A stretch of 54,437 nucleotides of DNA from a virus (lineage: Duplodnaviria; Caudoviricetes). The stretch covers positions 1-54,437 of the IMG/VR virus record IMGVR_UViG_3300042807_000082. One strand, given 5' to 3'. Below, one piece after another: positions 7,887 through 48,951 of the stretch. The notes under the pieces are model-generated. The model searched no databases. It saw only the letters and a program-made list of their open reading frames with translations, and had not been told where the DNA came from. The position numbers and the translations under genes were made by a program. Within the stretch, counting starts at the first letter, position 1. Every line of letters starts with the position of its first letter.

Positions 7887-9359
7887 TTAGATGTCCATGC
7901 GGTTACTGATGTAGTTCCGCAGGAATTTGGTGTCGTTGGCTATCTCAGGCTTGCTGAGATAAGAGATGAACGACTTGGAAGTTAGGTCGAATCCGTAACC
8001 GGATTGGTCGTGGCAGTAATTGACCAGTGCATTTACGAATTCGATTGCTGAAACAATCGACTCATACTTGAGAGAGCCTTTGAAGATCCGGAACTCGACA
8101 GTGTTCCGAGGCTCAAGGTTGATTGCCTCATAGCGTGAGTTCTGAGAGCGGTAAGCCGAGCCGAGTTTCTTCTTCTCGATTCGAGAATAAGAAGCGGCGT
8201 AACGCCGAGCCACTGCCTCGATAAGATCTTGGTTGTCAGGTGAGTTGACAAACGTGATCATCTTGGAGAGTTGCATCTTCGACAGTCCCTCTTTAGTAAC
8301 GTGGACGTGAAGACCGCAGGTCGAAGTCTTATGGGACAGCAAACCTCGGCGCAGTTCCGGAGTCTGAACCCACTTCCAAAATTCGGTCTGCATATCAAGA
8401 CCCATTGGTTGAGTGATGATCTCGAAGCCGTTACTAAGTGAGCCGTCGTTCTCGAAGAAGCATTTGTTGCCGACCTTGCCGTCGTAATTGACGGCGTTGC
8501 TGATTGCCTCGGCTTTGTCGTATTTAGATCCGTCCTGAACCTCGACCTCTAGTTCGACGCCGAAGAATCGCTCGGCTTTGCCGGTCTTAGTAATGCGGCG
8601 GTCCTCAGGCGACCATGTTCTGTATGTATAGGTGACCCGGTTCTTCTGGGTCCAATCAGAACTGATTGGGTAGAAAGAATCCTTGGATGAGTGGTAACTG
8701 CCGATGACTGGCGGCTCGAACTCGTTATGAACATACGTCTCACGGTCGTCGCAGTAATAGAAGTCATCGCTGTCCCGGTGGATTCGGATCTCTGATCCAT
8801 CAGAGTCGATGGCATCTACGCAGTAGTCGTCACTAACATAACTGCCGTGATACTCCGAATAGGTGTAGCAGTTGTCGGCACAAGACCGACAAATGTCGTC
8901 GTCGTGGTAAGTAGTGCGTGATTCCCCGTGAGTCTCCCACTCGTTGCAAGCGGAACACATGAAGAAGTCTTCTTCGATCAGGGGTTCGATCGCCGACCAG
9001 TCGTCGTAAGAAGTGAACGAATCGATCCAGTTGTTGAGTCTGGTTTGGCTAGTAACGCCTGACCTGTGCTTACGGGCAGTCCCTTGTAAGCCGTCGAACA
9101 AGAACAGCGAAAGACCGGCGTTGCTGTCTTCACAAAGGTCTACTAGGACACTGCGGATCGGAGGGTAATTCCGAACCTCGAAGATGGACGAGGCTTTGTG
9201 AAAGATTATGGCGATGGTTGCGGCATCGCTGTCGATCTCTTCTTCAGCGGCTTTACTAATCATCCGCTTGAGGGCGTCGATAGTATTGACCTGCTCGAAA
9301 GTAACCTCGGCAGTTTGGTATGCCCTAAGGGCATCGGCGACTCTAAAGTAATTGCTCAT
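7887..9359 (-). CDS. Amidoligase (COOH-NH2 ligase, Amidoligase_2-like) with Cys-rich acidic middle region
   Basis: FGVELEVE, DGSLSNGFEIITQP, CGLHVHV, RYEAIN, TVEFRIFKG; CxxC motifs upstream. Confidence 0.87.
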   Translation of the reverse strand: MSNYFRVADALRAYQTAEVTFEQVNTIDALKRMISKAAEEEIDSDAATIAIIFHKASSIFEVRNYPPIRSVLVDLCEDSNAGLSLFLFDGLQGTARKHRSGVTSQTRLNNWIDSFTSYDDWSAIEPLIEEDFFMCSACNEWETHGESRTTYHDDDICRSCADNCYTYSEYHGSYVSDDYCVDAIDSDGSEIRIHRDSDDFYYCDDRETYVHNEFEPPVIGSYHSSKDSFYPISSDWTQKNRVTYTYRTWSPEDRRITKTGKAERFFGVELEVEVQDGSKYDKAEAISNAVNYDGKVGNKCFFENDGSLSNGFEIITQPMGLDMQTEFWKWVQTPELRRGLLSHKTSTCGLHVHVTKEGLSKMQLSKMITFVNSPDNQDLIEAVARRYAASYSRIEKKKLGSAYRSQNSRYEAINLEPRNTVEFRIFKGSLKYESIVSAIEFVNALVNYCHDQSGYGFDLTSKSFISYLSKPEIANDTKFLRNYISNRMDI

Positions 9360-9388
9360 TTAATCCTCCGATTGGTTGAGCGTTGACG

Positions 9389-9473
9389 AAAAAAAAACAC
9401 CGGGGTCGGTGGCTTGGGGACTTTCATTTCCAGTATTGGCAGACCGGGTAGACCGACTGCAAATCGACGGGGA
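9389..9473 (-). promoter_or_regulatory. Terminator/antiterminator leader upstream of the amidoligase
   Basis: CACCG-ACCC-CGGTG plus U9 on the minus strand; GTCGGT (9452-9457) can pair with the terminator 5' arm. Confidence 0.55.
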
Positions 9474-9474
9474 A

Positions 9475-9708
9475 CTACTGCTTTAAGCAGTAGGCTTTGC
9501 GGAAAATTGCTTTCCCTCCGGCTTGATCCCAGCCTCTCGGGGTCGGGTATGTCATTTCCACGGTGATCCCGAGCGAGGAGATCAGATTCATGACCGTGGG
9601 CGTGAGGGTCTTAGTTCCGGCAATCGCGGCGAAAGCCTTGGCTTTCTCGCAGATTGGATAGAAGACTTGGGTTCCGTATTGATCCCTGAGTTCGACCGTG
9701 ATGTTCAT
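9475..9708 (-). CDS. Hypothetical early protein
   Basis: YG...FYPIC..AK.FA.IAGTKTLT motif seen in small phage proteins; SD AGGAG. Confidence 0.7.
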   Translation of the reverse strand: MNITVELRDQYGTQVFYPICEKAKAFAAIAGTKTLTPTVMNLISSLGITVEMTYPTPRGWDQAGGKAIFRKAYCLKQ

Positions 9709-9914
9709 GCGTTGCTCCTAACGTAAGAGTTGTTGATGGGGTCAAAGCCGATCCGAAGCATGGCTTCGAAGGTCTGCTCTTTAAGTGGCTGGAAGCCCTT
9801 AATAGATGCGTAGTTGAGATACTGCTCAAAGGTCGGCAGTGTTCCGACTGAGTAGTCGGGTCGCTGACTTATAAAGATGGGCAGTGCGATCTCGCGGGGA
9901 AGCACCTGATTCAT
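9705..9914 (-). CDS. Hypothetical early protein
   Basis: 69 aa, SD GAGG, ATGA coupling. Confidence 0.55.
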   Translation of the reverse strand: MNQVLPREIALPIFISQRPDYSVGTLPTFEQYLNYASIKGFQPLKEQTFEAMLRIGFDPINNSYVRSNA

Positions 9915-10090
9915 AGGTCACCTCTCAGATAGGAGTAGTTGTAGAAAGCCACGGCAAAAGCCGTGAAGTAGCCGAAGCAGTAACCCAGTAGGGTTAGAGC
10001 ATTGGTTGAGTTAGTAGTGACCCATAGGAATCCGATGACCAGTCCGGCGATGCCGGAGGCGGCGAGGCTAAGAATGTGCAGGGTTTTCAT
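9911..10090 (-). CDS. Two-TM membrane protein
   Basis: MKTLHILS... with SD AAGGAG; two hydrophobic segments. Confidence 0.6.
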   Translation of the reverse strand: MKTLHILSLAASGIAGLVIGFLWVTTNSTNALTLLGYCFGYFTAFAVAFYNYSYLRGDL

Positions 10091-10100
10091 GGGTGACTCC

Positions 10101-10289
10101 TTATTCAGAAGCGGCGAAGCCGAAGAAGAGGGTTGGGACACCGATGACCATTCCGGTCACGGCGGAGAGGTCGAACCAGATCTTTCCTACTACCCCGTGG
10201 TCGATCAGGACGGCGGAGATGCACATCCCGGCGAAGCATAAGAACAGCAGGACTAGGCAGATCAAGAAGATTACGAAGGTCGGTTTCAT
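10101..10289 (-). CDS. Two-TM membrane protein
   Basis: 62 aa hydrophobic, SD AAGGAG. Confidence 0.6.
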   Translation of the reverse strand: MKPTFVIFLICLVLLFLCFAGMCISAVLIDHGVVGKIWFDLSAVTGMVIGVPTLFFGFAASE

Positions 10290-10300
10290 AGGTCGGCTCC

Positions 10301-10450
10301 TTAGATGGTGAATTCGTGGGCTTTAAGAAAGGCGATGTCTTCCGGAGTGGCAAGGCAGACCGAGAAGGGATGCTTCAGAAGGTAGGCTTGCAATCTCTTG
10401 CGATTGGATGGCGAGGGAAGATTGCGGAAAGCGTTTAAGAGTCGGTTCAT
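10301..10450 (-). CDS. 49-aa hypothetical early protein
   Basis: MNRLLNAFR...AHEFTI with SD AGGAG; the track extends it through a terminator. Confidence 0.65.
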   Translation of the reverse strand: MNRLLNAFRNLPSPSNRKRLQAYLLKHPFSVCLATPEDIAFLKAHEFTI

Positions 10451-10472
10451 CGAGGTTCTCCTAATAGAGGGC

Positions 10473-10500
10473 AAAAAAAATCCCCGGATAAACCGGGGAT
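10473..10500 (-). terminator. Intrinsic terminator after the first early gene
   Basis: ATCCCCGG-5nt-CCGGGGAT followed by a U-run on the minus strand. Confidence 0.8.
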
Positions 10501-10520
10501 CGAGGGGGAATCGGCGGGGA

Positions 10521-10898
10521 TCACTTACGAATAAGCGCCTCAAGGTTGCCGATAGCAACCTCAAGAGAGTCAGCCGCCTTAGAGATGTTCTTAGAAGCAG
10601 ACTTCACTGCATTAGCAGTGGACACAAGGATCTCATTGGAAGCCTTAGAAGGCTTCGAGTAAGTCTTCTTGGGAGAAGACTTAGCCTTGACCTTCTTCTC
10701 TTCCTTGGACTTGCCAAGCAAGTCCTTGATCATTTGGTCAGCCTCTTTCTTAGAAAGTGTCTGACCACGGTAGTCTTGACCACCAAGCATCTTGATAAGG
10801 AAGGTCTGCTTCGCCGTGGCTTTGCCACGCAGAGGCTTCTTAGAAGCCTTGGTCGTTTTGTTGTCGGTAGAAACAGTGGCTTTAACGATTGCAGTCAT
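10521..10898 (-). CDS. Lys/Ser/Ala-rich basic protein, first gene of the leftward early cluster
   Basis: ATG 10898 with SD AAGGAG; 125 aa; ATAKQ...LSKKEADQMI motif and lysine-rich linker. Confidence 0.7.
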   Translation of the reverse strand: MTAIVKATVSTDNKTTKASKKPLRGKATAKQTFLIKMLGGQDYRGQTLSKKEADQMIKDLLGKSKEEKKVKAKSSPKKTYSKPSKASNEILVSTANAVKSASKNISKAADSLEVAIGNLEALIRK

Positions 10899-11450
10899 GA
10901 TGTTCTCCTTTGAACGTGAAAGACTGGGATTGCCGATAACCGCCAACCGGTCATCGTCATTCCACTTTGCTCGACTCAACTCACCGATTGCAAAACGCCA
11001 AAACCACCCCTAAAGGGGTGAGTTGCGGAAAACTGCGGAACCAGTCAGCCCATAATTCCCAAGGGGAATCAACGGGTTGCGATTTCGGTGGGAAGGAATT
11101 ACGGGGAAATACACGCGGAACTTCACTCTGTGAAGTCAAAGAGGGCTGGATCGACCCTGCCGGACACCACTATTCACTTAGATTCCATCTAAGTGGACAC
11201 AACTTCAGCACAAAACAGTGCGAATCCCTTATTCCATAAGGGAAAACTACGGATTGGCAATGGCTGGTGACACACACAGGGCGAAGCCCCATGCGGTCAC
11301 CCCCCGCCCGACCCCGAGCGTGGACATACGGGGGCATGAGGACTCCACTGCTATCTACCCCTCATGCACAAGTCCGACCCCCAGTGGACCAAACAGACCG
11401 ACCCCCCGGGGCTTTGAGTCTCCTTGGTCTAATTTTTTACCGGAGACGTT

Positions 11451-11717
11451 ATGAGGCGACAGGAACTTGAGCGGATGTTGAGGGAGTACGAACCCCTCAA
11501 GGGTGTGCAAGTGACGCATGAGAGTGCGTTTAAGGCGGCTATTGCCCCGTATGAGGTAGTAGTCAGGGGGATTGTTCAGATCAATGGGGAGCCTATGGCG
11601 TATGAAGCCCCTATTAACCTGAAGCAATTCATGGATAGACGTGATGTGGAGCGTCTGATCAAGGGACTCTTCGAGTCTTTTGAGAGGGCTGAGAGACAAG
11701 AATCTGCGATTCAGTGA
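11451..11717 (+). CDS. Hypothetical protein
   Basis: 88 aa, SD GGAG. Confidence 0.6.
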   Translation: MRRQELERMLREYEPLKGVQVTHESAFKAAIAPYEVVVRGIVQINGEPMAYEAPINLKQFMDRRDVERLIKGLFESFERAERQESAIQ

Positions 11718-11723
11718 TGAATT

Positions 11724-11851
11724 TGGCGGGAGCCATCTCAAGCGGTGGGTGAGTTAACTACCGCAGTAGCGGCAGGATGTCTCCTAGAAGTTGTCTCCTC
11801 GTCCTGTGACGCTATCACCTACCCCGGCGGGTGTGATGCCGGGGATCTTTT
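11724..11851 (+). ncRNA. Predicted structured RNA with twin anti-SD loop
   Basis: Four consecutive hairpins; TGTCTCCT twice within one loop; ends in CCCCGGC/GCCGGGG plus a T-run. Confidence 0.45.
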
Positions 11852-11865
11852 ATGGAGTGAAAACT

Positions 11866-12099
11866 ATGGCGGCAAGAATCCGTAAGCATCATCAAGATGA
11901 TGTGAGAGCAAAGATTCAGGCAAGCCAGTTGATCAACCGTTTGATGGGACACATCGAGGGTAAGACGCAACTGGCTCCTACCCAGATCAATGCGATCAAG
12001 ATCCTCTTGGACAAGTCGTTGCCTAACTTGAGTGACATCAAGATGGAGCATTCAAGTCAAGGCATTACCTTTAACCTCAACACTACTGGCGACAAGTGA
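11866..12099 (+). CDS. Putative terminase small subunit
   Basis: Directly upstream of terL; KIQASQLINRL...AIKILLDK.LP.L motif; SD GGAG. Confidence 0.65.
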   Translation: MAARIRKHHQDDVRAKIQASQLINRLMGHIEGKTQLAPTQINAIKILLDKSLPNLSDIKMEHSSQGITFNLNTTGDK

Positions 12100-13544
12100 G
12101 CGAAGTTATTGATCAACAGGAGACGGTCAATTACTCGCCACCCGGAGAGAAGGCTAAAGCCTTTCATGGCTCTGATGCGTTTGTCAGGGGCTTGATGGGT
12201 CCGGTTGGTTCTGGCAAGTCATCGTCCTGCTGTGTGGAAATCATGGCGAGGGCGTTGAAGCAAGAGCCTTGGATTGATGGCGTGAGGCGTTCTCGGTGGG
12301 CGGTGATCCGTAATACCTATCCAGAACTGAAGTCGACCACCATCAAGACGTGGGAGACGTGGTTCCCGAGTAATGTGGCTCCCATCCGTTGGGACACGCC
12401 GATTACATCGACGGTGACCATTCAGGATATTGGCGACGGGACTTCCCTTGAACTGGAAGTTCTGTTTTTGGCTTTGGATAAGCCTAGTGAGACTGGCAAG
12501 TTGCGGTCGCTTGAATTGACTGGAGCGTGGATCAATGAGGCTTCTGAAGTTCCTAAAGAAATTTTTGACATGGTCACCCAGCGGGTCGGACGTTACCCGT
12601 CCAAACTCCGTGGCGGACCAACGTGGTGTGGAGTCATCCTCGACACCAACCCCCCAGACGACGACTCTTGGTATTACAAAATCGCCGAAGAGCAAACCCC
12701 GGAAGGCTGGCAGTTCTTCCGGCAACCGGGCGGTCTCTACAAAGAAGGCGAAGAGTACAAGCCGAACCCGGAAGCCGAAAACATCGACAACCTCCCGAGC
12801 GGATACCAGTACTACCTGAACCAACTTGGCGGCAAAGACGACAACTGGATCAACGTCTTTCTGCTGGGGAACTACGGAACCACGGCGGACGGCAAGCCTG
12901 TCTACCCAGAGTTCAACGACAAGATCCATGTGGCGGACAAGCCCATCGAACCCATGCGCGGTTTGCCTATTGTGCTGGGCTGGGACTTCGGGTTGACACC
13001 CGCCTGTGTGATCATGCAACAGACCCCACGGGGTCAAGTGGTCGTCCTCAAGGAGATTGTTTCCGAGGACATGGGTATTCGGCAGTTTGCCAACGACGTT
13101 GTGAAGCCAATCTTGATGAACGAGTTTGGCGGCTACTTCCGAATTTCAACGGCTGACCCTGCCGGTCAGATCCGGGCGCAGACAGATGAGCGAACCTGTC
13201 TCCAAGAATTGTTGGAGTCTGGCATCCCAACTGAACCCGCCCCGACCAACGACTGGCTCCCACGCCGAGAGGCAGTTGCCTACTTCCTTACCCGCATGGC
13301 GGATGGACAACCGGGGTTCCTCCTCGATCCATCTTGCACGAACTTGCGTAAAGGTTTCAACGGTAGGTACAAGTACGAGCGACTTAAAACAAGCGGTCCG
13401 GCTCGGTATCGAGACCGCCCAGTCAAAGACGATATGTCCCACATCCAAGATGCCTTGCAATACGCTTGCTTGCGTTTCCGCAATGGCTTGACTGGACCGA
13501 GGGTTAGAGCCGTCAAGACTTCATCAAGTAAAGGTTGGACATGA
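12096..13544 (+). CDS. terL: Terminase large subunit
   Basis: Walker A GPVGSGKS, Walker B WINEASE, DTNPP, RNase H GWDFG and SHIQDALQY. Confidence 0.93.
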   Translation: MSEVIDQQETVNYSPPGEKAKAFHGSDAFVRGLMGPVGSGKSSSCCVEIMARALKQEPWIDGVRRSRWAVIRNTYPELKSTTIKTWETWFPSNVAPIRWDTPITSTVTIQDIGDGTSLELEVLFLALDKPSETGKLRSLELTGAWINEASEVPKEIFDMVTQRVGRYPSKLRGGPTWCGVILDTNPPDDDSWYYKIAEEQTPEGWQFFRQPGGLYKEGEEYKPNPEAENIDNLPSGYQYYLNQLGGKDDNWINVFLLGNYGTTADGKPVYPEFNDKIHVADKPIEPMRGLPIVLGWDFGLTPACVIMQQTPRGQVVVLKEIVSEDMGIRQFANDVVKPILMNEFGGYFRISTADPAGQIRAQTDERTCLQELLESGIPTEPAPTNDWLPRREAVAYFLTRMADGQPGFLLDPSCTNLRKGFNGRYKYERLKTSGPARYRDRPVKDDMSHIQDALQYACLRFRNGLTGPRVRAVKTSSSKGWT

Positions 13545-15571
13545 CCATAGCAATTGCGAAAGCCCCAGTAGAAATGGAGGTCATGGCGGTAACGCCAGAA
13601 ACCGAAGCCCTCGAACTGGCTGAGATCGCACTGGCGGCTCACATCCGTGATTGCTGGGCGAAGGCAAAATTTGCCAAGACCGAACTGGTCGAGCGCCTCC
13701 TGAAGTGTGAGCGTCAGCGTCGTGGCGTCTACGACCCCGACCGGGCTAACGATATTGCTAAGACTGGCGGCTCTGACATTTACATGAGGCTGACGGACAT
13801 CAAGTGCCGTGCGGCGGCTTCTTGGATTCGTGACGTCATGGCGACCCTTCAGGACCGCCCTTTCGCTTTGGAGCCTTCCGAGGAGCCACAACTGCCTCCT
13901 GAGATTCAGATGGCGATCATCGACATGGTCCGCCAAGAGGCTGAAGCGTTTGTCAATGCTGGCGCACAGATCCACCCTGAGGCTTTCCGCACCCGGCTGG
14001 AAGTTGTCCACGAGCAGATCAAACTGAAACTGAAAGACGAGGCGCGTGATTCTGCCCGTCGCATGGAAGACAAGATCGAGGATCAACTGACGCAAGGCAA
14101 GTTCCAAGATGCCTTCCGTGATTTCATCGACGACTTTGTCACCTACCCTACGGCGATCATCAAGGGACCAAGCGTCCGCCGCCGTAAGTCCATGAAGTGG
14201 GGTAACGACTTCACCCCCGTGGTCACAACCGACTTTGTTCGTGAGTTCGAGCGAGTCTCCCCCTTCGACATCTACCCGTCTCCCAACTCCTCTGGCGTTG
14301 CAGACGGCTGGTTGATTCAGCGACATAGACTGAATCGCACGGAGTTGCAATCACTTCGCGGAGTGCCGGGCTACTCTGACGAGAACATCGATCAGGTGCT
14401 TGAGCGTTTTGGCGACAAGGGATTGCGTGAGTGGCTCATGGGCGACCAAGAGCGCGACAACCTAGAAGGCAAGCCTCACTCCCGTCTGTATTACGACGGC
14501 GTCATTGAGGCTCTGGAGTTCTGGGGTTCGTCTCGTGGTGCTGACCTCATTGAGTGGGGCATGAGCAAGAAGGACATCGACGAGGATAAAGAGTACGAGA
14601 TCAATGCTTGGATGATTGGTCCCTACGTCATTAAGTGCGTCATCAACCCAGATCCTTTGGGCAAGCGTCCTTATGAGATTGCTTCTTGGGGCGAGATCCC
14701 CGGTGCGTTCTGGGGGACTGCCCTGCCCGAGCAGATGCGTGATACCCAGACCATGTGTAATGCGGCGGCTCGTTCGCTGGCAAACAACATGGCGATTGCC
14801 TCTGGACCTCAGGTCGAGGTATCGGTCGACCGTCTACCGGACGGCGAGGACGTGACCTCCATGTACCCGTGGAAACTCTGGCAGACCACTTCCGACAGAA
14901 CCGGCGGTGGTCAGCCAGCCGTTCGCTTCTTCCAGCCCGGTATGAACGCTGACGTTTTGCTTGGCGTCTATCAGAGTTTCATGAAGCAAGCCGACGAGGT
15001 TACTGGCATCCCGAACTACATCTACGGTTCAGGCGTTGCTGGCGGCGCAGGTCGCACGGCTTCCGGTCTGTCAATGCTGATGGACAACGCCGCCAAGGGA
15101 ATCAAGGCGGCTATCGCCACCGTAGACCGAGCCATCTCTGGAATCGTTTCTCGCCTGTACGTTCACAACATGATGTACGACGAAGACACGTTTACCAAGG
15201 GTGACTTCCGAGTCGTAGCGAAAGGCGCAAGCGGCATGATCGCTCGTGAGCAACTTCAGTTGCGTCGCAACGAATTCCTGCAAGCCACTGGTAACCCGGT
15301 CGATATGCAGATCATCGGCATGGAAGGTCGTGCTTACCTCCTGCGCGAAGTTGCTCGTAGCCTCCAGATGGACACCGACAAGTTGGTTCCTGATCAGGAG
15401 GTCATCAAGTTCCGACAGGAGCAGATGGCGGCAATGCAACAAATCATGGCGGCACAGCAAGCGGCACAAGCCGGTGGTGCGCCTGAGTTACCTGCCCCGC
15501 AGGAAATGGACCCCGCTGGCAACCCTGCTGGTGGAGCGGATGTAAACACTATGAATGGAGTGATGCGATGA
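13535..15571 (+). CDS. Portal protein
   Basis: 678 aa after terL; RVSPFDIYP, GRTASGLSMLM, Gln-rich tail. Confidence 0.88.
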   Translation: MDMTIAIAKAPVEMEVMAVTPETEALELAEIALAAHIRDCWAKAKFAKTELVERLLKCERQRRGVYDPDRANDIAKTGGSDIYMRLTDIKCRAAASWIRDVMATLQDRPFALEPSEEPQLPPEIQMAIIDMVRQEAEAFVNAGAQIHPEAFRTRLEVVHEQIKLKLKDEARDSARRMEDKIEDQLTQGKFQDAFRDFIDDFVTYPTAIIKGPSVRRRKSMKWGNDFTPVVTTDFVREFERVSPFDIYPSPNSSGVADGWLIQRHRLNRTELQSLRGVPGYSDENIDQVLERFGDKGLREWLMGDQERDNLEGKPHSRLYYDGVIEALEFWGSSRGADLIEWGMSKKDIDEDKEYEINAWMIGPYVIKCVINPDPLGKRPYEIASWGEIPGAFWGTALPEQMRDTQTMCNAAARSLANNMAIASGPQVEVSVDRLPDGEDVTSMYPWKLWQTTSDRTGGGQPAVRFFQPGMNADVLLGVYQSFMKQADEVTGIPNYIYGSGVAGGAGRTASGLSMLMDNAAKGIKAAIATVDRAISGIVSRLYVHNMMYDEDTFTKGDFRVVAKGASGMIAREQLQLRRNEFLQATGNPVDMQIIGMEGRAYLLREVARSLQMDTDKLVPDQEVIKFRQEQMAAMQQIMAAQQAAQAGGAPELPAPQEMDPAGNPAGGADVNTMNGVMR

Positions 15572-17240: not shown

Positions 17241-18239
17241 ATGTCTGTATCCACCACTTCTGGCTACTACACCAGTGGCTCAACTACCGACGCTTATACC
17301 GGGAATTTCATTCCTGAGATTTGGTCGGGCAAACTCCAAGTCAAGTTCTACAAATCGACCGTTCTGGGCGAGATCACGAACAACGACTGGGAGGGCGAGA
17401 TCAAGGGTCAGGGCGACAAGGTCAACATTCGTACCATCCCCACGATCACCATCTCTGCCTACACCAAGGGCATGAACCTGTCGAATCAGGTTCCTCAGTC
17501 TAGCCCCATCGAACTGGCTATCGACAAGGGTCGCTATTTCAGCGTCGTTGTTGACGATGTCGATGAAGTTCAGGCTGACGTGAAACTGATGGATATGTTC
17601 ACCAACGATGCCGCCCAGCAGATGAAGATCGCTATCGACAGCGATGTTCTGAACAACGTAGCCGCTAACGCCGCTTCTGCTAACAAGGGTGCTACCGCTG
17701 GTGCCATCTCCGGCAACATCAACCTCGGTGCTACTGGTGCGCCTCTGGCTGTTACCAAGGACGGTGCTTCTTCTACGACTGCTATTCTGGATCTGCTCCT
17801 CGACATGGGTCAGGTTCTGGACGAGCAGAACGTACCTGAAGATGGTCGCTGGGTTGTCATCCCTGCTTGGATGGCGGCTCTGCTCAAGAAATCGGAACTG
17901 CGTCAGGCTTACCTGACTGGTGACGACACCACTCCTCTGCGTAACGGCAAACTCGGCATGATCGATCGTTTCACCCTGTACGTCTCCAACAACCTGACAT
18001 CGTTTACCGATTTGGGTTCGGACGGCGCAGAAGGTGGTTCGAGCGGTGCGGCTGACACCACTGCATGGAACATCCTCGCTGGTACCCGTGATGCGATTTC
18101 TTTCGCTTCGCAGATCACCAACGTGGAGACCCTGCGTTCCACTACGACCTTCGGCAACATCATGCGCGGTCTGAATGTCTACGGCTACAAAGTTGTGAAG
18201 CCTGAGGCACTCGTGACTGCTCGTGTTCGCAAGGGCTAA
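17241..18239 (+). CDS. Major capsid protein (HK97 fold, P22/T7-like)
   Basis: FIPEIWSGKL, GEIKGQGDKVNI, LDEQNVPEDGRW, GLNVYGYKVVKPEAL; followed by a terminator. Confidence 0.92.
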   Translation: MSVSTTSGYYTSGSTTDAYTGNFIPEIWSGKLQVKFYKSTVLGEITNNDWEGEIKGQGDKVNIRTIPTITISAYTKGMNLSNQVPQSSPIELAIDKGRYFSVVVDDVDEVQADVKLMDMFTNDAAQQMKIAIDSDVLNNVAANAASANKGATAGAISGNINLGATGAPLAVTKDGASSTTAILDLLLDMGQVLDEQNVPEDGRWVVIPAWMAALLKKSELRQAYLTGDDTTPLRNGKLGMIDRFTLYVSNNLTSFTDLGSDGAEGGSSGAADTTAWNILAGTRDAISFASQITNVETLRSTTTFGNIMRGLNVYGYKVVKPEALVTARVRKG

Positions 18240-18253
18240 GTAGTAACCAAGTG

Positions 18254-18283
18254 AGAGGGGGGCGAATCGTCCCCCTCTTTTTT
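18254..18283 (+). terminator. Intrinsic terminator after the capsid gene
   Basis: AGAGGGGGGCG...CGTCCCCCTCT plus T-run. Confidence 0.85.
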
Positions 18284-26033: not shown

Positions 26034-27707
26034 ATGACTAAAGCAAGAGACCTTGCCGCCCTCTTGGGCGGAGGCACATCTGGTGTGGCTACCTTTGGCG
26101 GCACTGCCGCTATTCGGGTTCCTAACGGAACCACGGCACAACGTCCTACCGCTTCTGAGGGCATGGTTCGTTATAACAGCACACTCGGCAGAAATGAGGT
26201 GTATGACTCTATTGGCTGGACTCCAATTGCCGCACCTCCGGTGCTTACTGCCGTATCACCAGATGCATACAACGGGGAGTCTGGTACATCTTTTACGCTA
26301 AGTGGAAGTAATTTTGAGGCTAGTGCGGTTGTAAAAATTATCACCTCTAGTGGGGCTGAATTTTCTCCAGCCAGCACTTCTGTTAACAGCACATCCAGTA
26401 TTGTGGTCACGACACCGCAAGACTTTACAGTAGCCAACGGACCACTCACGATTAAGGTCACAAATCCAACTGGTCTTTCTTCTCAATTGGATGGGGCAAT
26501 TACCACCGGAACAAGTCCAACATTTAACGTTTCTGCTGGGTTGGCTGGGACGTATGTTGGCGGTGCGTCTGTAAGCCTTACCCTTGATGCCACAGATGTT
26601 GATGCTGGCTCCACTGTCACATACTCTCTTGTGTCAGGCTCTTTGCCATCTGGTCTTTCGTTAAACACCTCAACAGGAGTTGTGTCTGGAACGGCTGGAA
26701 GCCCCGGCAACTCGGAAGTAACTTCTTCATTCACCATTCGAGCGACTGATAACGCGGGTAACTATGTTGAACGAGCCTACTCGATCAAAGTCCAGCCGCA
26801 GATTGCACTGCCAGCCGCCTACCAATCCATTGTTACGAACGCCGGGAATACCGTTTACTACGTCAACGCCACATCAGGAAGCGACAACAACAATGGGACA
26901 AGCAGGGCTACTGCATTTGGGACAATTCCTAAGGCTGTCTCGGTAGCCGGAAACGATGGCGTAATTGTGCTGTCGCCGGAAGTGCATTATTTAACCGGGA
27001 ATGCATACAACCTTGGTAACTACGGGGTGGCATCTTTCACTCCAAGTAACGCAACTAGACGCATGAATCTCCGAATCATTGGCTACCCGGGGAAGACTTA
27101 TATCGTTCATTACAACCCCGGATCGGCAAACAGGGATTTCCATTTCGCACTAGGAAGTGATAACTGCGCTGTTATTGGGTGCATTCTTGAGAGAGACTTG
27201 AACGGTGGCAGTGAGGGAATGTCCTCAAACTACATGACAGCAATTTTTGGAATGAACGAAGACAACTTCGGAGCCTACTCTTCGACTACCAGATTGAAGA
27301 TCCAAAACTGCGTGATCAAAAATTGCGGTTCTTCTCCAACAAAGAGACCGGGTGGCACTAGCGGGTACGATAAGTTTTCGTGGGTGTATGACAACAATAA
27401 CAACAGTTACGCCGGTATTTACAGTTCTCTGGTTTATGGCGGCGGTTCAATTGACTGGATGAGTTCATACAGTGGCGCAAACGTGGAAGCGAATTATGTC
27501 CTTTCAAACATCAGCATGGGAACTAGCGGCGTCAGTTTCACTGGTAGCAGTAGCAACGTATCTATTGACACCTCTTTCTGGGGTCGCAGTGGACAAAGTC
27601 AGTCAGTAGCAGACTCTGGTGGTCAAGGGGTTTACTCAGGAACTTACTCTTGGCAAAACGCTACATACAACTTTGCCGTGAATTTCTACGGATCAAACTG
27701 GTCGTAG
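26034..27707 (+). CDS. Tail fibre 3 (Ig-like domains plus putative beta-helix)
   Basis: MTKARDLA, GTTAQRP, LPSGLSLN, YYVNATSGSDNNNGT...AFGTI.KA. Confidence 0.78.
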   Translation: MTKARDLAALLGGGTSGVATFGGTAAIRVPNGTTAQRPTASEGMVRYNSTLGRNEVYDSIGWTPIAAPPVLTAVSPDAYNGESGTSFTLSGSNFEASAVVKIITSSGAEFSPASTSVNSTSSIVVTTPQDFTVANGPLTIKVTNPTGLSSQLDGAITTGTSPTFNVSAGLAGTYVGGASVSLTLDATDVDAGSTVTYSLVSGSLPSGLSLNTSTGVVSGTAGSPGNSEVTSSFTIRATDNAGNYVERAYSIKVQPQIALPAAYQSIVTNAGNTVYYVNATSGSDNNNGTSRATAFGTIPKAVSVAGNDGVIVLSPEVHYLTGNAYNLGNYGVASFTPSNATRRMNLRIIGYPGKTYIVHYNPGSANRDFHFALGSDNCAVIGCILERDLNGGSEGMSSNYMTAIFGMNEDNFGAYSSTTRLKIQNCVIKNCGSSPTKRPGGTSGYDKFSWVYDNNNNSYAGIYSSLVYGGGSIDWMSSYSGANVEANYVLSNISMGTSGVSFTGSSSNVSIDTSFWGRSGQSQSVADSGGQGVYSGTYSWQNATYNFAVNFYGSNWS

Positions 27708-27724
27708 TAATAAAAGCCACAACC

Positions 27725-27747
27725 AACCCGCTTCGGCGGGTTTTTTT
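27725..27747 (+). terminator. Intrinsic terminator
   Basis: AACCCGC-TTCG-GCGGGTT plus T-run. Confidence 0.9.
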
Positions 27748-38975: not shown

Positions 38976-41900
38976 ATGGCACTAGAAAACGAAGTCAACG
39001 AATACTCACGACAGTTTGGTATCCGTGCCACCCCAGTTTTCAAGGACGCCGATACTGCGAAGGACGAAGTCCGTCGTGGTATCGCACGTCCTCAAACAAT
39101 GGTGGAGATGCAACGCCGCTATGGTGCGCCGGACATCCCTACTGAAACTGGTGAGCCGGTAAATGACACCCCTCTGGCAGAGAAGCCAAAGCCAGCAGTA
39201 GACCCTAACGACCCCAGCGGTGGTGTCGGCTTTGTCGACTCCGTTAAAAAGGGTTGGCAAGGTGTCATGCTCACATGGGACTTTCTGGCGAACAAACTGG
39301 AAAAGGCTGTCACCGGAGACACCAAGGATACTGAGCAGATTCTGGCGGCATCAGCCGAAAAGTACTTGGGAATGAAGTCTGACCCTCGGATTGCCAAAGC
39401 AATCGAGGTTGCATCAGAGTCATTCGACAAAGAAGATGGAGTAGTCGCTGGAACCTATGAAGGCTCCAAGGCGATGCTCGGGTTCTTTGTTGACAACCCG
39501 GGGGCAATCGTCAACTTCTTGGGTGAGCAAGTTCCTGCCTTGGGTGCGGCTGTTGCCCTTCGCAACCCTGCCGCCGCAGTGCCTACCGGGATCGCCAGAG
39601 GACTGGTGACCCGTGGTGCGCTCTCCTCAATTGAAAGTGCCGCTGTAAAGGGCGCTATCGTGCGAGGCACTGAGATGGCTGCCAAGGGTGCGGCAATCAA
39701 CTCTATTGCCGTTGTCTCTGGGTCGCTGGGTAGCAACTACGTCGAGGGCTTGGAAAAGTTTGGCGGAGACACCGAAGCGGCTAAAGATTATGCCACCACC
39801 AAGACGCTTGCTGAAGTTCCAGCCAACGCTGTCGCTGGTGCATTCATGGCGTTCAATCCATTTGCCAGCCGTTTTGCCAGTCCAACTCTAGCCGCTACGG
39901 CAAACGTCGGAACTCAGGCTGTTATTCAGGGTACTGGTGGTGCTACCGGTGCTTACATGGCGGCTAAGTCTGTCGGCGAAGATCCTAAGTTCGGCGAACT
40001 CGCACTGGAATTCTTCGGTGAATCGTTGACCGCACCTGTTGATGTTCTTGCAACTCGCTCAGAGATTAAAGCCGATCGAGCCAAAGAGGCTAGAGATAAG
40101 GCAATGGATGGCGTCACGGTTGGAGTCGATCGACTCAACCAGATGGTGAACACAGACCGTGGTCTGAGTGTATTTGCCGCAATGTATCAGGATGCAACTC
40201 CTGAGGTGAAGACAAAAATTGATGCTGTTGTCGAGGGCGCGGGTCTGACAGACAAGTTCCAGTCTGCGCTAGAAGACAAGAAGACAGTTGAATCAGGGCA
40301 AAAGATTGTTGAGCAGAACCAAGCCTTCATTGGTGTGGTTAATCGCTCTCTGTCTGCCGTGACTGACGATGCTTTGGCTGATCTAAAAGCAAGCAATCAG
40401 AAGACTGCCGATGCCACCACTGAGGCTCCGGCAACTACTGAGACTCAGCCTCAATCGACCTCGGTCCGTATCACCGATCCGGCTGGAAAGGTGTATGAGG
40501 GGACCATGCTGGCTAACGGCATGATTGAAGCAAAGATGCCTGACGGCAGTTCGTTTACTGTTCCCGCTTCTTTCGCCGCCAAGATCGAACCTATTCAGTC
40601 TGGAGAAACCAATGCCGCTGAAACCGGGCAAAAGCCAAAGGGTCGTAAAAGCAAACGTGTCGGAACTGATGAGCAAGTTCAAACAGACGGGCAAACTGGG
40701 GTCGTCGAAACCGCAGAGCAAACAGGCGGCACAGAAACAGGCGGTGGCGATAGCACTGTCCAAGGCGGGGGCGAAACGCAAGTAGCGGATACCACTGCAA
40801 AGGTAGCCAAACAAACCACCCCGAAACCTCGCAAGGGTCGCCGCTCTCGCGGCGCAACAACGGACTTGGAATCAACCTCCAAGAACATTGACGACCTGAC
40901 CAAGATGGCACAGGAGAAAGCCGCTCGTGGTGAGAGTCTGACAGCGGAGGAAACCTCCGCCATCGAGCAAGCAATTGCCGAGGGCAAAGCCGCTGTAAGC
41001 AAGGCTCGTGAGACTGCCGCCAAAGGCGAGGCTCTGGCTAACGAGGCTTTAAGCACGACCACCGATAACAGCACGGCTACTACTGAAGCACCCGGTGCTA
41101 CTAAAGCCAAGCGTGTCAGCAAGCGCAAACAACAAGGTGTTGTTGGCGACCTGTTGCAAGCCAACCGTGAATTGAAGCAGGAAGAACGTGAGGCAAACAA
41201 AGAGACCAACAAGAAGAACCGCCAAGCGGCTAGAAGCGATGCCTCGCTGGACATCCTCGAAGAGGATGTTGTGGCTGGTCGGATCACTGCTGACGAAGCC
41301 AAGGCAAAAATTGCCGATGCAAAGAAGGCAAAGCAAATTAACGCTGGTCGTGCGGCTCAACTGACGTCCAAGGTTGAGCAGGCTGTTCGCACCCGTGAGG
41401 AAAACAAAGCCAACGAGCAAGCCAAGGCTGAGTCTGGTGGCTCTGAAGCCCTCACAAACCGCATCAGTCAGGAACTGAACCGGATTGAGGCTGAGAAGCA
41501 AGATGCCCAGATGAAGGCTAAGAACAAACGACCAAGCCGTGGCGCGGTCAAGAAGGAAGTTCTTACCGAGGAAATCGGAGCGGTCAACAAGTACGTCAAT
41601 GACTCAATCGTTCGAGTAACGGAGGGGATCTCATCAGATGTATCGGCAAGTTTCTTGGAAAAATCTGCTTTGGCGTTGGGTAGCCTTGCCAAACAACTTG
41701 AGACCAGAGCCTCAGAGATTGCGCCGAACACATCGATTGGTATTTGGGTGAAGTCTTCGCTGAACAATCTAGCGCGAGATGTCCGTGCGGCAGAGGGCTT
41801 GGTCAAAAAGGCTCAGTCTGAGCAGACTGGCAAGTCTCGTGAGCAAGCGCAGAAGGCAGTTGACCGGATCATCGACAACGCTCGTAAAGTTCTGGGGCGC

Positions 41901-44900
41901 GGCAACGAGACCATCACTCGCATCGAGAACCGTGACAACGCAACCGAACTGGATGAGGCTCAATTCACCCCAGAGGAAGTGGTTGAGTCTGGCACTAAGA
42001 CTGGCAGACCCAAGGGGTCGAAGGACGTTCTGTCCAACTTTGCCGGTAAGCCGTTTGCTGAGTTTGGATTAGATGAGTTCACGGACACGAAAGACCCTGA
42101 AGTCTTTTTGTCCGGCGGCGGACTTGGATTCCTGTCAAAGGACAAGTGGTTCCGGTCACTGGATGCCGCACTACGGAAGGCGTCGAAGAACAAGGACGTT
42201 GAACTACGCCAAAACATTCTGGATTCCATCAAGGATTCGGAACTTCAAGCCTATGAGGCTTGGAAGGAAGGCAAGAGCAAGCGTCTAAACCTGTTGCGCC
42301 AAGCGACTAAGGACAAGTCCATCAAGCAAGAGCAACTGAAAGCCTTGCTGAACGACCCGGACTTTGTGTTCTCCGGTTATGTCTTCAATGACTACCCCAA
42401 CCTAGCCCTGTTTGAGCGTCCGTTGGAGTATCTGCGCCAGCGCAACCCTGACGTTGATACCAGCAACGCCATGTACAGGGCAATCCTGCGCTTGGGCGGT
42501 GGTGTCGCTGACAGTTCGAACGTCTGGTTTGAATCCATCTTTACCGCTATCAGCAACCGACCAGACCTAGAGGGTCAGATTTTGAGCCGGTTGTCGAATG
42601 ACGAGGTCGCTCGATATAAGCAGTGGTCAGAGCGTCAAGACCGGGCAATGGACTTGGCTCAACGGATGCGCCAGCGTGGTGCTGAATACAAGCGATACAT
42701 CGACATCATCGATGAGTACGGCGCAGACGCTGAAGGTGTTGAGATTTCTTACGAGCAGTTGCTCGGAGTTATTGGCGACATCGAGCGTTCTGGTGGTGAC
42801 ACAGCCAACCTGTTTAGCCGAGGTGCTGGCACGGGTGGCGGCGGTATGTCCGTGGCTTCTGTCTACGCAATGGTCAAGCAATTGACTAAGGGCTGGACCA
42901 ACGCCCCCAACATCGAGGTGGTAAACGCTGAGATTGACTTGCCCCAATCCATTAAGGATCGGTTGGCTAAAGACATCGAGCGCAACCCCGATGGCGTTGC
43001 TCAAGGTTACTTCGACCAAGAGACCGGCACGGTGTACCTCTTTGCCGACAATATGTTCTCTGGCGCGGACGTTGAGTTCACCCTGTTCCATGAGACCTAC
43101 GGTCACTACGGCTTGCGTGGCATTCTTGGCGACAAACTCAACGCATTCCTGAACAGAGCCTATGCCACAAGTAATCGTGTGCGTGAGGCTACCAAGGCTT
43201 GGCTGGACGAAAACCGTCCTGACAACGCTGGCAAGGAATGGGACGCAGAAAACCGACTGCTGGCTATTGAGGAGGGTCTATCTAACCTCAACGCACAGGG
43301 TCAGGAACTGGGTCTGTTCAAACAAGTGCTGGTCATGATTCGGGACTTTGCCGAGTCTATGGGCTGGGACAGCATTGTTGAGTATCTCGACAATGTCTCT
43401 GAGGTCGAGGTCGCATCGGTGCTGGCAGATGCACGTCAGTATGCAAAAGACGGCAACCCATTCACCTTCAGCACCACTGGCACTGCCCTCTTCCTACGCG
43501 CAGGACACTTGAGCCAAGCCAACTTCGACGAGTTCGTACTGAACAATAGCGTTCAGGACTCAGGCTTTGGTGACTCCGTCTACTCTGGCGGCGTCTACTT
43601 CTATCGTGATACAAACCTTGGTCAGGGTTACCTGATGCGGGTGAATCTCGGCTCTGCCGGTCTCGTGCCTCGTCGTGGGAATCCAAAGTCTATAAACCAG
43701 CACATCGAGGATGCAATCGACAGCGGCGGAAGTGCTGGAGTTTTGGAGGCACCTCAGGCAAACGCTGTTCTTGAGATTGTGGAAGAGACAAAGCGTCTTG
43801 CTTATGCCGCCCGTCTGGAAAAACTGGACGATTTAAGCCCAATCCTGAAGAAGGTTGCCAGCGAGTACGAGAGCCGCATGGAAGCCGAGATGGAAGTTGC
43901 CGAGAACGATGGCGATATGGACGCTGTCAGTGCATACGCAGAGGCTATTTCCAAGGCTCGTGAGATTGCCAACTGGAAGATCAACCAAGTTGGCGATCCT
44001 GTGAAGTATGTGGTGGAGATTGATGACAAGGTTGTCTCCGACAACTTTGCCCAGTGGGACGGGAAGATTTCTGATGGTCCCAAGTCCGTCCAGCAATTCT
44101 TTGCCGACAGACCATACATCAAGTCTGTGCTGAAACTTGCCGCAGAAGACCCGAACTTTGCCGCAAATATCCGCTCATCTGGTAACCGCACTGCCCTCGA
44201 TCCAAACAACCCAACATTCGCTTGGGCGTATGACGCTTTGGTTGAGTACAAACGAGCCAATATGTTTGGCAACAGCCGTGGCAATCAGTCGGATGTCAAT
44301 GCCGCCAAACTAGATGTGGCAAGCGAGATGTCTGAGGGTGGGGTCAAAGGTAGTTTCCACTGGGAGACTCAACGCTCGAAAGATGAAGATCCAAATCTGG
44401 TCGTATACGACCCGAAGATGATCCGCATCGTCAAGAAAGAGCCGTCGCCCAAGAGTCCTGCTCTTTACTCGCGCAAACAGCAGTCACGTCCGGTGGAAGT
44501 TGTCGCCAAGAAAGGTGACAAGACCCACGGTCTGGCTGTGTACGACCCGATCCTCCAAGAGTGGACTATCTTCACCAATCCAAACGCCGACATCCGAACT
44601 GGCAAGCACAACGTGCAATACGCCAAGAAGATTGACGACGTGATGAATGTCTTGAAGACCGTCCCGGGTGTGCAAATCACATCGATGAAGGCTTATCCGG
44701 GCAGGACTCCTGCCTCGCCTCAGGTCATGGTTGCAACGCAACAGAACCAGAGCGCATTCAAGAAGATGATCCAGCGCAAGATTGACGACATCGTCATCTA
44801 CACGCAGAACCAGTACCTCCCGATCAAGCGTTATGTGGATAACCTTCGTGCAAACGAGCGGCTTTCTGACGACGCCAATGTCTGGCAGAAACTGATCCTG

Positions 44901-47847: not shown

Positions 47848-48909
47848 TTAGGCACTGTGTCGTATTTGTACACAAGCCTCTGACTCCGGCTCGAAAACCC
47901 GGTCGATTGCACTGGAAGCCTTGGCTAAATGGTCGACTGATAGGTGAGCGTAGCGTCTCACCATCCTCGCATCCTGCCACGCACCCAGTTCCTGTATCTT
48001 GTCCAAGCCCTCGCCGCTCTGGCGCATCAGACTTGCCCAAGTGTGCCGGAGGTCATGCCACTTGAAGTTGTCGATTCCAGCCCTATCCAAGACCTTCTTC
48101 CACATCTTCGACGGAACCTCCCGTACAGGCTTTCCATCGGGTTTCACAAAGACCCTTACATCATCCTTACCGACCCACGGTCGCAACGCTTGCAAGGCTG
48201 TCTCGTTGATTGGGATGGTCAATGCCATTCCGTTCTTCATGACAACCCCGGGAAACGTCATCTGGCGCCTTCCAAAGTCCACCTGTTGCCAAGTCAGATC
48301 CTTGATGTTGCCCAGACGTAGCCCAGTTGCTACCGCCAGCATCGCCATCGAACGGTAGGGTTCTTCCATCGCAGACAGAAGTCGCTGGACTTCCGCCGGA
48401 GACAGGAACCTCACCCTCTCATTGCGCTCTGGCAAGCATCGGAACAGGGGCGCTTGATCTAGCCACTGATACTCACGGGCGGCGGCATTGATAACCGCTC
48501 TGAGTAGGGCAATCTTTCGATTGACCGTGGCGGGAGCAATAGGCTTCCCATTCCTTTGCCGAGGTCTGCCAATCTCCTCGTCTCGAATCAACCGGACAAC
48601 GTCCGCATTGATCTCGTCTAGGAACTTGACCTTGCGAGCCTTGAACTTTGCAGTCCACCACTCACCCCTCTTCACATCTTCGTGATGTGTACGCTTGTGT
48701 TCATGGTCATTGAGCCACCGCTTGAGGGTTTCATCCCACGTCCTGCGGACAGACTCTTTCAGGAACTTGCCCCTCCAGACCTGCGCCTTCAGTTCGTCGT
48801 GAAACTCCTGCGCTTGCCTCTCATCGCCGGTATTACAAGACCCGCGATAGACCTGACCCTTGACGCCGAAGTTGTACCACCACGTCTTTCCCCGCTTGTA
48901 GATAGCCAT
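47848..48909 (-). CDS. int: Tyrosine integrase
   Basis: TGLRLGNI, HDLRHTWAS, LGAW, RRYAH; adjacent to attP; SD AAGGAG. Confidence 0.95.
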   Translation of the reverse strand: MAIYKRGKTWWYNFGVKGQVYRGSCNTGDERQAQEFHDELKAQVWRGKFLKESVRRTWDETLKRWLNDHEHKRTHHEDVKRGEWWTAKFKARKVKFLDEINADVVRLIRDEEIGRPRQRNGKPIAPATVNRKIALLRAVINAAAREYQWLDQAPLFRCLPERNERVRFLSPAEVQRLLSAMEEPYRSMAMLAVATGLRLGNIKDLTWQQVDFGRRQMTFPGVVMKNGMALTIPINETALQALRPWVGKDDVRVFVKPDGKPVREVPSKMWKKVLDRAGIDNFKWHDLRHTWASLMRQSGEGLDKIQELGAWQDARMVRRYAHLSVDHLAKASSAIDRVFEPESEACVQIRHSA

Positions 48910-48951
48910 AACCACTCCTTTCTGCTACCTACCATCGAGTACCGCTTAGAT

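Follow-up and report, generated by a model that had tools for sequence, protein, structure and literature searches.

A conserved, covarying RNA element with a CU-rich loop ahead of the terminase genes of temperate podovirus-like phages

We investigated a short stretch of DNA ahead of the terminase genes in a 54,437-bp IMG/VR virus record (completeness estimate 96%; the whole record is hereafter called the window), which an earlier note, made from the letters of the sequence, had described as a structured RNA with twin anti-Shine-Dalgarno (anti-SD) motifs before the small-terminase gene terS. As a result, three hairpins of this element, P2, P3 and P4, were found to covary across 16 homologues, and the compensatory changes indicate that the element is a real, structured and functional RNA. 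The comparison gives good support to the view that it represents a previously uncatalogued family of structured RNAs, located in the untranslated leader of the late transcription unit of temperate podovirus-like phages, a unit that consists of tRNA genes where present, followed by the packaging and structural genes. The carriers are uncultured temperate phages from several freshwater, lagoon and marine metagenomes, as judged by habitat labels only. The earlier note had spotted a real, previously uncatalogued structured RNA and had correctly singled out its CU-rich loop, while some of the detail that it attached to both fared differently, as described below.

The element fills the 148-nucleotide (nt) gap between p88, an 88-aa open reading frame (ORF), and p77, a terS-like ORF of 77 aa, and its conserved core, composed of P2, P3 and P4, spans 11738-11848. 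The hairpins and both copies of the CU-rich motif lie where the earlier note had placed them, and the parts are as follows.

11724-11735, + strand: P1, a mini-hairpin (TGGC-GGGA-GCCA), window-specific
11742-11764, + strand: P2, a hairpin pairing GCGGTGG (11742-11748) with CTACCGC (11758-11764)
11766-11815, + strand: P3, a long hairpin pairing GTAGCGGCAGGA (11766-11777) with TCCTGT (11802-11807) and CGCTAT (11810-11815)
11778-11785, + strand: first CU-rich motif TGTCTCCT (RNA UGUCUCCU), on the 5' side of the P3 apical loop, probability of being unpaired 0.81
11792-11799, + strand: second CU-rich motif TGTCTCCT (RNA UGUCUCCU), on the 3' side of the P3 apical loop, probability of being unpaired 0.68
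11816-11821, + strand: P3/P4 junction CACCUA
11822-11853, + strand: P4, a GC-rich terminator-like hairpin (11822-11844) followed by the tail ATCTTTTAT, positive in the terminator scan

P3 is thus built of an outer 6-bp stem, a GA bulge (11808-11809), an inner stem and the apical loop that holds both copies of the motif. The 8-mer TGTCTCCT occurs twice on the + strand of the window, both times within the element, and the shorter GTCTCCT occurs there seven times. P1, which had been counted as part of the element, is not conserved: the corresponding stretch of L002 and L003, the two closest relatives, lies within the coding region of the upstream gene p88, at its 3' end, and shows no conserved pairing. 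In a strain with 97.5% identity, the sole loop variants (11786 and 11788) fall between the two motif copies, and near-identical strains, represented by contigs from four DNA runs, retain the element. Two other interpretations of the stretch were rejected. A coding function was not supported, since the 46-aa ORF at 11745-11885 is disrupted by 1-nt indels in L002, and a miniature inverted-repeat or other mobile element was discarded, with no second copy in the window and no terminal inverted repeats seen.

We then collected relatives of the window by a terL search of IMG/VR, which gave 80 loci, and by an alignment of terL to bacterial genomes and metagenome-assembled genomes (MAGs), which gave a second set of 56 loci. 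The element was found by blastn in L002 and L003 only, at 77-80% identity. A covariance model of three sequences (R1; the window, L002 and L003) detected distant copies, and a model of ten sequences (R2) recognized the element, always at E below 1e-13, in the window itself and in 16/80 IMG/VR loci (L002, L003, L019, L022, L023, L026=L030, L038=L039, L040, L049, L056, L072=L073=L075 and L079), together with matches in three of the 56 genome or MAG loci (L101, L093 and L092). The distinct element sequences number 16; these counts are lower bounds, many loci having short upstream flanks, and the MAG bin labels are unreliable as host assignments. All of the matches lie on the terL strand, 0-1.3 kb upstream of p77 and terL, and whole-record searches yielded exactly one copy in each of three element-bearing records, one of them a 1.7-Mb MAG. 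Five relatives at least 93% complete that have no terL-proximal match do not carry the element elsewhere either, and two further records (82-84% complete) have none. The idea of an insertion specific to the window clade was rejected, since the covariance model found distant copies at other positions. In another metagenome (run X4, record 17), a 5.5-kb contig contains a near-identical P2 segment (window 11737-11765) and then terL (window 12197-12245), with 481 bases between them as compared with 431 in the window, and is a further relative with the element.

The evidence for structure comes from the comparison of these homologues and not from fold energy, because the single sequence folds no better than its shuffled versions (11715-11870, + strand; z -1.26, with 24 of 200 shuffles folding as well). 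In the 16-sequence model alignment, 93.1% of the cells in paired columns form standard pairs, versus 69.8 ± 1.6% in shuffled alignments, double changes affecting both sides occur in 20 of the 26 pairs, and none of 500 shuffles attained any of the five measures. When the 3' partners were slid by 1-3 columns, the pairing fell to 34-46%. Support is best for P3, where 12 of the 13 pairs are compensatory and 96.5% of the cells pair; P2 has 8 pairs, 3 of them compensatory, with 89.8% of cells paired, and in P4 all five modelled pairs covary. The compensatory changes in P3 and P4 are visible already with three sequences. Since the model alignment had been fitted to the model, the test was repeated with the 16 core segments aligned by MAFFT alone (L023 and L049 cut somewhat short), and RNAalifold, a check that the earlier note had itself named for the homologous regions before terS, recovered the identical P2, P3 and P4, with 18 of 24 pairs compensatory. 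Outside the stems, a near-invariant GCAG joins P2 to P3, the P2 loop is conserved as GUGRG...UAAC, the junction before P4 follows the pattern C-N-N-N-U, and the P4 loops read CGNAA or CGUCA outside the window clade and GGGUGUGAU in the window. We considered, and set aside, pseudoknots that would join the P2 loop to the P3/P4 junction or a leader GGAGA to the CU-rich loop, since by eye these are feasible in a few sequences only (the window, L101, L093 and L026).

The G.U pair beside the GA bulge of P3 (alignment columns 52-122) is present in 16/16 sequences. Because this pair is invariant and other G.U pairs recur, the comparison indicates that selection acts on the + strand RNA and not on the complementary strand or on a DNA cruciform. 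We also compared the element with neutral sites: the four-fold degenerate sites of terL are 49% (L002) and 37% (L003) identical to those of the window, and since the element is far more conserved at 77-80%, we conclude from these alignments that it is under purifying selection and is not a neutral spacer. These results bear on the possibility that the stretch acts at the level of DNA, as a pac or cos site or an operator, or is a decaying, non-functional insert. Its position adjoining the terminase genes and the direct repeat of TGTCTCCT in the window would be in keeping with a DNA signal, but the repeat is not conserved, the conserved G.U pairs and the compensatory changes are what an RNA, not a DNA site, would show, and the next-closest relatives, L004 and L005, lack the element though their p77 is 89% identical, which speaks against a packaging site; a non-functional insert would not be far more conserved than neutral sites. 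We thus regard this explanation as highly improbable.

No known family accounted for the element. Rfam, which the earlier note had named as a further check, gave no match in a cmscan (Rfam 15) of the whole window at gathering thresholds, and in E-value mode on 11650-11900 the best entry, Esr41, scored 16.7 bits (E 0.64), where the gathering score is 102. Scanning IMG/VR for the exact window-clade pattern returned the contigs of L002 and L003 only, exact-pattern scans of one metagenome and of genomes gave chance matches in unrelated GC-rich contigs only, and a looser family pattern returned the contigs of L079 and L056 only in IMG/VR and nothing in genomes. The flanking kilobase had no close relative among GenBank phages by blastn. 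In the literature, we found no account of a covarying, terminase-linked phage RNA motif, although general motif surveys and their supplements might contain one.

We next consider the P3 apical loop, in which a CU-rich motif is present in 16/16 homologues. Loss of this motif among relatives had been named beforehand as the outcome that would count against the idea of an anti-SD loop; the motif is kept throughout. It reads GUCUCC in 13/16, GCUCCU(CC) in L040 and L092, and CUCCUCC in L049, several homologues having GUCUCCUCC at this place, and it includes the anti-SD core CUCC, often as CCUCC. GUCUCCU occupies the 5' position of the loop in L003, L023, L026, L038, L022 and L019, and the motif lies at the 3' position in L002, L073, L101, L056, L079, L093 and L092. 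Of the 16 homologues, the window and L002 alone have both positions filled, and one clear copy is present in each of the remaining 14, so that the twin motif is a local peculiarity rather than a family feature.

As first proposed in the earlier note, the element might act as a short, stable leader RNA that pairs with SD-type sequences, and we tentatively favour this explanation, while rating it somewhat below an even chance. Base pairing with SD-type targets is preferred because the loop motif makes a good anti-SD and is the sole sequence-specific clue to function. The leader would be produced as a short stable RNA of ~110-130 nt, of which the 3' end would be set by P4 acting as an intrinsic terminator in the window, and elsewhere by termination or by processing, for example beside tRNA genes. 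The CU-rich P3 loop (GUCUCCU or CUCCUCC) would then pair with purine-rich SD-type sequences and modulate their translation, and read-through of the leader transcript would provide the packaging mRNA. In this scheme we infer the transcript ends, the pairing, its targets and the direction of regulation. The more specific proposal of the earlier note, an independent late RNA that shuts off early or host translation and perhaps cooperates with the 4.4 kb RNA, is to be taken as a hypothesis only. The gene neighbours of the element change from relative to relative, as detailed below, which fits a diffusible short RNA or a cis element acting at the level of transcription.

This arrangement is reminiscent of the lambda 6S/StxS RNAs, which likewise are short structured RNAs at the start of a temperate-phage late operon, followed by a terminator that is read through for the late genes. 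StxS is described as a late-promoter leader terminated at tR' that acts in trans as a small RNA (sRNA) by base pairing (PMC7547250). Both the place of the element at the head of the late block and the terminator-like P4 of the window would suit such a leader. The element, however, shares neither sequence nor structural homology with these RNAs, it follows the coding gene p88 in the window instead of a promoter, and it is accompanied by a terminator in only 6/16 homologues. No Q-like PHROG match was obtained among the 46 window ORFs scanned, and no PR'-like promoter was identified. A CU-rich, anti-SD-like loop motif together with adjacent hairpins also recalls the cuckoo sRNAs (alpha-r14/RSs0680), which are described as 2-4 adjacent hairpins with CCUCCUCCC in each loop and variable stems (PMC4615179). 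The element falls outside the cuckoo definition, since its CU-rich motif is confined to the P3 loop and the P2 and P4 loops are conserved but different; it is, moreover, phage-borne, situated in an operon leader and without an Rfam match. The loop type has a further parallel, which the earlier note had also drawn: AbcR-type sRNAs use anti-SD-like CU loops.

We thus examined possible targets in the window. AGGAGAC does stand 3-5 nt before ATG at the ribosome-binding sites (RBSs) of two early genes (- strand, 6002-5996 and 6931-6925), as the earlier note had reported, and the two AGGAG copies that it saw in the leader of the repressor gene (53655-54107, - strand) are present. Its statement that most leftward early genes use AGGAG did not hold up: one of the 11 leftward ORFs at 4495-10979 does so, plus the two AGGAGAC sites if start codons are shifted, and over the whole window AGGAG occurs within 19 nt upstream of 6/57 ORF starts. 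Four phage RBSs read GGAGAC, namely those of p88 and of the starts at ~5990 (- strand), 6919 (- strand) and 35127 (+ strand), and are possible targets of the CU loop as judged by complementarity. GGAGAC within the W-E-T codons of terL was rejected as a conserved target, since it is equally frequent in loci with the element (14/18) and without it (47/60). Separately, in the p88 leader (window 11418-11446), a GUCUCC at 11418 is exactly complementary to the p88 SD GGAGAC at 11442; the resulting hairpin lies outside the lowest-energy fold (z -0.1), and its significance is doubtful.

Several observations weigh against the proposed SD-pairing leader RNA. The window loop pairs with 58 translation-initiation regions at a mean of -12.8 kcal/mol, versus -11.8 ± 0.64 kcal/mol for shuffled loops, and 13 of 200 shuffled loops pair as well, which is a weak enrichment. 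The single-strandedness of the motif, clear enough in the window (probability unpaired 0.68-0.81), extends to only half of the family: in single-sequence ensembles the probability is at least 0.5 in 8/16 homologues and at most 0.32 in the other eight, where the predicted partners are nearby purine tracts, including the downstream SD in L019, L049 and L079. The CU-rich motif occupies only one of the three loops, and the invariant GCAG junction, the G.U pair with its GA bulge, the UAAC of the P2 loop and the P4 loop are not explained by a simple seed-pairing sRNA and suggest contact with RNA polymerase or a protein. A cis role, which the earlier note had named as an outcome that would refute its idea, would account just as well for an element that is always in sense orientation where the late operon begins. 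As for the transcript ends, the terminator scan gave a site that coincides with P4 or follows it closely in the window, L023, L040 and L019, and one at a separate downstream hairpin in L038 and L026, 6/16 homologues in total; in the other 10/16, L002 and L003 included, the U-tract after P4 is missing, as judged by eye. The terminator-like end hairpin of the earlier note thus stands for the window, but its U-tract is not a conserved feature. Nor did a promoter scan detect a sigma-70-like promoter beside the element in the window. In L101 and L093, promoter-like sequences (TTGCAA-N17-TACATT or TTGTGG-N17-TACACT) were noticed by eye 27-35 nt 5' of P2; a proposed homology of window 11690-11722 to the promoter-like region of L101 was dropped, the alignment being unconvincing beyond GGGAG..CCATCTCA.

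The position of the element relative to the surrounding genes was then compared. It lies between p88 and p77 in the window, L002, L003 and L026; before p88, or before another ORF that precedes p88, in L022, L019 and L040; directly before p77, with no p88, in L049, L056, L079, L101 and L093; ~100 nt before p77, with a canonical terminator between, in L038; and ahead of tRNA genes in L023 and L092. The gene that follows is p77, p88, a 227-aa ORF or a tRNA gene. Among the ORF families within 3-4 kb, none is confined to loci that bear the element; the p77 family was found in 20/20 loci with the element and also in 61/117 without it. As a separate observation, p88 shifts relative to the element: L026 and the window clade have it on the 5' side, L022, L019 and L040 have it on the 3' side, and others lack it. 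On this pattern it behaves like a movable small gene within the leader region. In the loci other than L002 and L003 that contain both p88 and p77, the two genes are -26 to 37 nt apart, with the exception of L026/L030, where the gap is 770 nt.

Such variation is relevant to the possibility of cis translational control of the next cistron, in which the CU loop or the CACCU junction would pair with the downstream SD and gate its translation, and the operon by polarity, in the manner of the expression platform of a riboswitch or thermometer. Indeed, a start codon follows P4 by ~15-65 nt in roughly 11/16 homologues (by eye), in L019, L049 and L079 the lowest-energy fold has the motif paired with the SD that lies 3' of it, and in that of the window the CACC(UA) junction pairs with GGAGUG of the terS-like gene; a conserved domain in a variable terminator and SD context also resembles cis-regulators whose expression platforms vary. 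Control of any single neighbouring cistron is nevertheless disfavoured, because the downstream gene is not conserved, tRNA genes and no ORF follow in L023 and L092, a terminator intervenes in L038, and the p77 RBS varies (GGAG, GAGG, AAGGA, or none in L023) while the loop motif is constant, so that the loop and the local RBS do not covary. We therefore rate this mechanism as improbable.

tRNA genes on the same strand adjoin the element in 4/16 homologues: a tRNA-Met ends 4 nt before it in L040 and another lies 186 nt upstream in L022, seven tRNAs separate it from p77 in L023, and tRNA-Met and tRNA-Thr lie 3' of it in L092. They are also found in 15/31 element-less loci. Because tRNA genes occur there both with and without the element, the region ahead of the packaging genes is, by its gene content, an untranslated zone of RNA genes in this phage group. 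More widely, phage tRNA genes, nearly always including a tRNA-Met (CAT), were observed on the terL strand 5' of p88/p77 in many relatives (L005, L022, L023, L025, L028, L029, L034, L037, L040, L041, L043, L045, L051, L057, L059, L061, L077, L092 and L125); the window itself contains no tRNA genes.

Two observations on transcription in these phages should be described here. Strong intrinsic-terminator-like sites are present on the + strand of the late block at 18253-18279, after the major head gene, and at 27725-27742, after the gene at 26034-27707; they would imply read-through or internal promoters for the distal late genes. In addition, the element-less relatives L008-L018 carry a different conserved leader ~300 nt 5' of p77 (e.g. 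L009, 2470-2770), with a AAATCAAACA motif, a GGGAUA..CCCAG hairpin and a canonical terminator immediately before the p77 SD, which may serve the same operon as another, unrelated leader RNA.

The strongest competitor of the SD-pairing leader RNA, which we consider less likely but to be taken seriously, is cis-acting antitermination. The nascent leader RNA, either alone, as in HK022 put, or with a phage or Nus protein, as in nut, would render RNA polymerase resistant to termination and so allow transcription of the untranslated leader with its tRNA genes and of the ~36-kb late block. Much of the genomic context would suit such a role: the element always heads the late unit in sense orientation, irrespective of the gene behind it, is present in a single copy per record, is followed directly by terminators in 6/16 homologues, and is separated from p77 by untranslated tRNA genes in L023 and L092, while the late block contains the strong terminators mentioned above, and the element-less L008-L018 have a different leader with its terminator ahead of the p77 SD. 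Furthermore, the invariant bulge and junction nucleotides resemble contact sites. The put RNAs themselves, as described in PMC9378689, are ~70 nt long with two bulged stem-loops, lie 0-270 nt past the promoter, bind the beta' zinc-binding domain of RNA polymerase and suppress termination over at least 10 kb. Like them, the element is a structured leader encoded in cis that has bulged stem-loops and is found close to where a long phage operon begins, its distance from the promoter being variable. However, put RNAs have two stem-loops over ~70 nt and serve early operons, while the element has three hairpins over ~110 nt, belongs to a late operon and carries an anti-SD-like loop, and no similarity to put in sequence or architecture was seen. 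Antitermination would also leave the anti-SD likeness of the conserved loop unexplained, and neither an antiterminator gene nor a gene family co-occurring within 3-4 kb was identified. With the nut and rrn leaders (boxA, boxB, boxC), the element would share a pyrimidine-rich linear motif plus a small GC hairpin with a pentaloop, and the P4 loops CGNAA/CGUCA and the GGUGUGUG in P2 of L002, L003, L073 and L101 may resemble the nut/rrn box consensus; it differs from these leaders in order, spacing and sequences, and an N-like gene was not identified.

The invariant G.U pair and GA bulge of the long P3 would also be in line with a processing or stability element recognized by a protein, such as an RNase III/E site or a phage-protein site, that uncouples or stabilizes the packaging mRNA, or with another RNA-protein role. 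The element is intercistronic in the window clade, and it adjoins tRNA genes, which give rise to processed RNAs. On the other hand, nothing points to a particular nuclease or protein, and the CU loop and the sequence-specific P2 and P4 loops exceed the needs of a generic processing hairpin, which leaves this role unlikely, if a shade less so than control of the next cistron. Less probable again, and in our estimate a long shot, would be mimicry of the 16S rRNA 3' end, in which CUCCUCC or GUCUCCU on a rigid scaffold near phage tRNA genes would serve as a decoy or sponge rather than a seed-pairing sRNA. Such a mimic might titrate SD-led host or early mRNAs globally late in infection, or absorb a host defence ribonuclease that targets the anti-SD region, both variants sharing in the same low estimate. 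The motif, the conserved scaffold and the tRNA neighbourhood are what speak for it, and nothing else specifically does. Phage pseudo-antitoxin RNAs, which neutralize abortive-infection toxins, provide a parallel.

To our knowledge, very few conserved structured RNAs occur in the control regions of phage late operons, namely nut, put and the 6S/StxS leader. Given how few sequences there are, the covariation of the element is unusually clear; in addition, its place in the genome is defined and its anti-SD-like loop is invariant. As a riboregulator, it would represent a phage-encoded reprogramming of translation as packaging begins; as an antiterminator, it would give phages a second class of RNA that controls RNA polymerase. 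At ~110 nt, it is a compact candidate, and its covariance model can be used for annotation.

Finally, the setting of the element in the window was analyzed. According to PHROG and Pfam scans, the window is a temperate podovirus-like phage, which also encodes a primase/helicase, RusA and a Sak-like annealing protein. The rightward block at 11451-47417 is on the + strand, and the features that frame the element are as follows.

11451-11717, + strand: p88, first gene of the rightward block (ORF list)
11854-11857, + strand: SD of p77, GGAG
11866-12099, + strand: p77, terS-like, from its ATG at 11866 (ORF list)
12096-13544, + strand: large terminase subunit gene terL (PHROG 2, E 2e-31; Pfam Terminase_6N)
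13535-15571, + strand: portal gene (PHROG/Pfam scans)
17241-18239, + strand: major head protein gene (PHROG/Pfam scans)
47848-48915, - strand: integrase gene (PHROG/Pfam scans)
53655-54107, - strand: repressor-like gene (PHROG/Pfam scans)

The p77 stop overlaps the terL start. Neither p88 nor p77 has a Pfam or PHROG match, and p77 is called terS-like because a weak similarity (E 7e-4) to the 'putative small terminase subunit' of Sulfitobacter phage phiGT1 is the sole support for a small-terminase identity. The late block is closed by a 2813-aa ORF (window 38976-47417), the C-terminal ~900 residues of which match phrog_14770, 616 and 10691, families of very large phage proteins with no function assigned; its product is possibly an ejected or internal virion protein.

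The convergent intergenic region at 4290-4500, between a + strand block ending at 4300 and a - strand block starting at 4495, is presumably the '4.4 kb RNA' that the earlier note had mentioned as a possible partner of the element. It is strongly structured on the + strand (z -3.6, 0/200 shuffles as good) and holds a GC hairpin followed by UUUCUUUU, plus a CUCC-containing stretch; it may be no more than a region of bidirectional termination. A perfect inverted repeat, CACTTAGAT-TCC-ATCTAAGTG, was found at 11185-11215, in the intergenic stretch from which p88 and the leftward gene that ends at 10979 diverge. This repeat looks like an operator, and a similar motif, CCCACTTAG, lies 15-41 nt 5' of the element in L023, L026 and L038. 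A C-run/G-run palindrome (CCCCCCGGGG-like), seen by eye at 11400-11412 of the window and in L101, L093, L009, L011 and L012, is located 100-300 nt 5' of the late leader and may be an operator or the terminator of the neighbouring unit.

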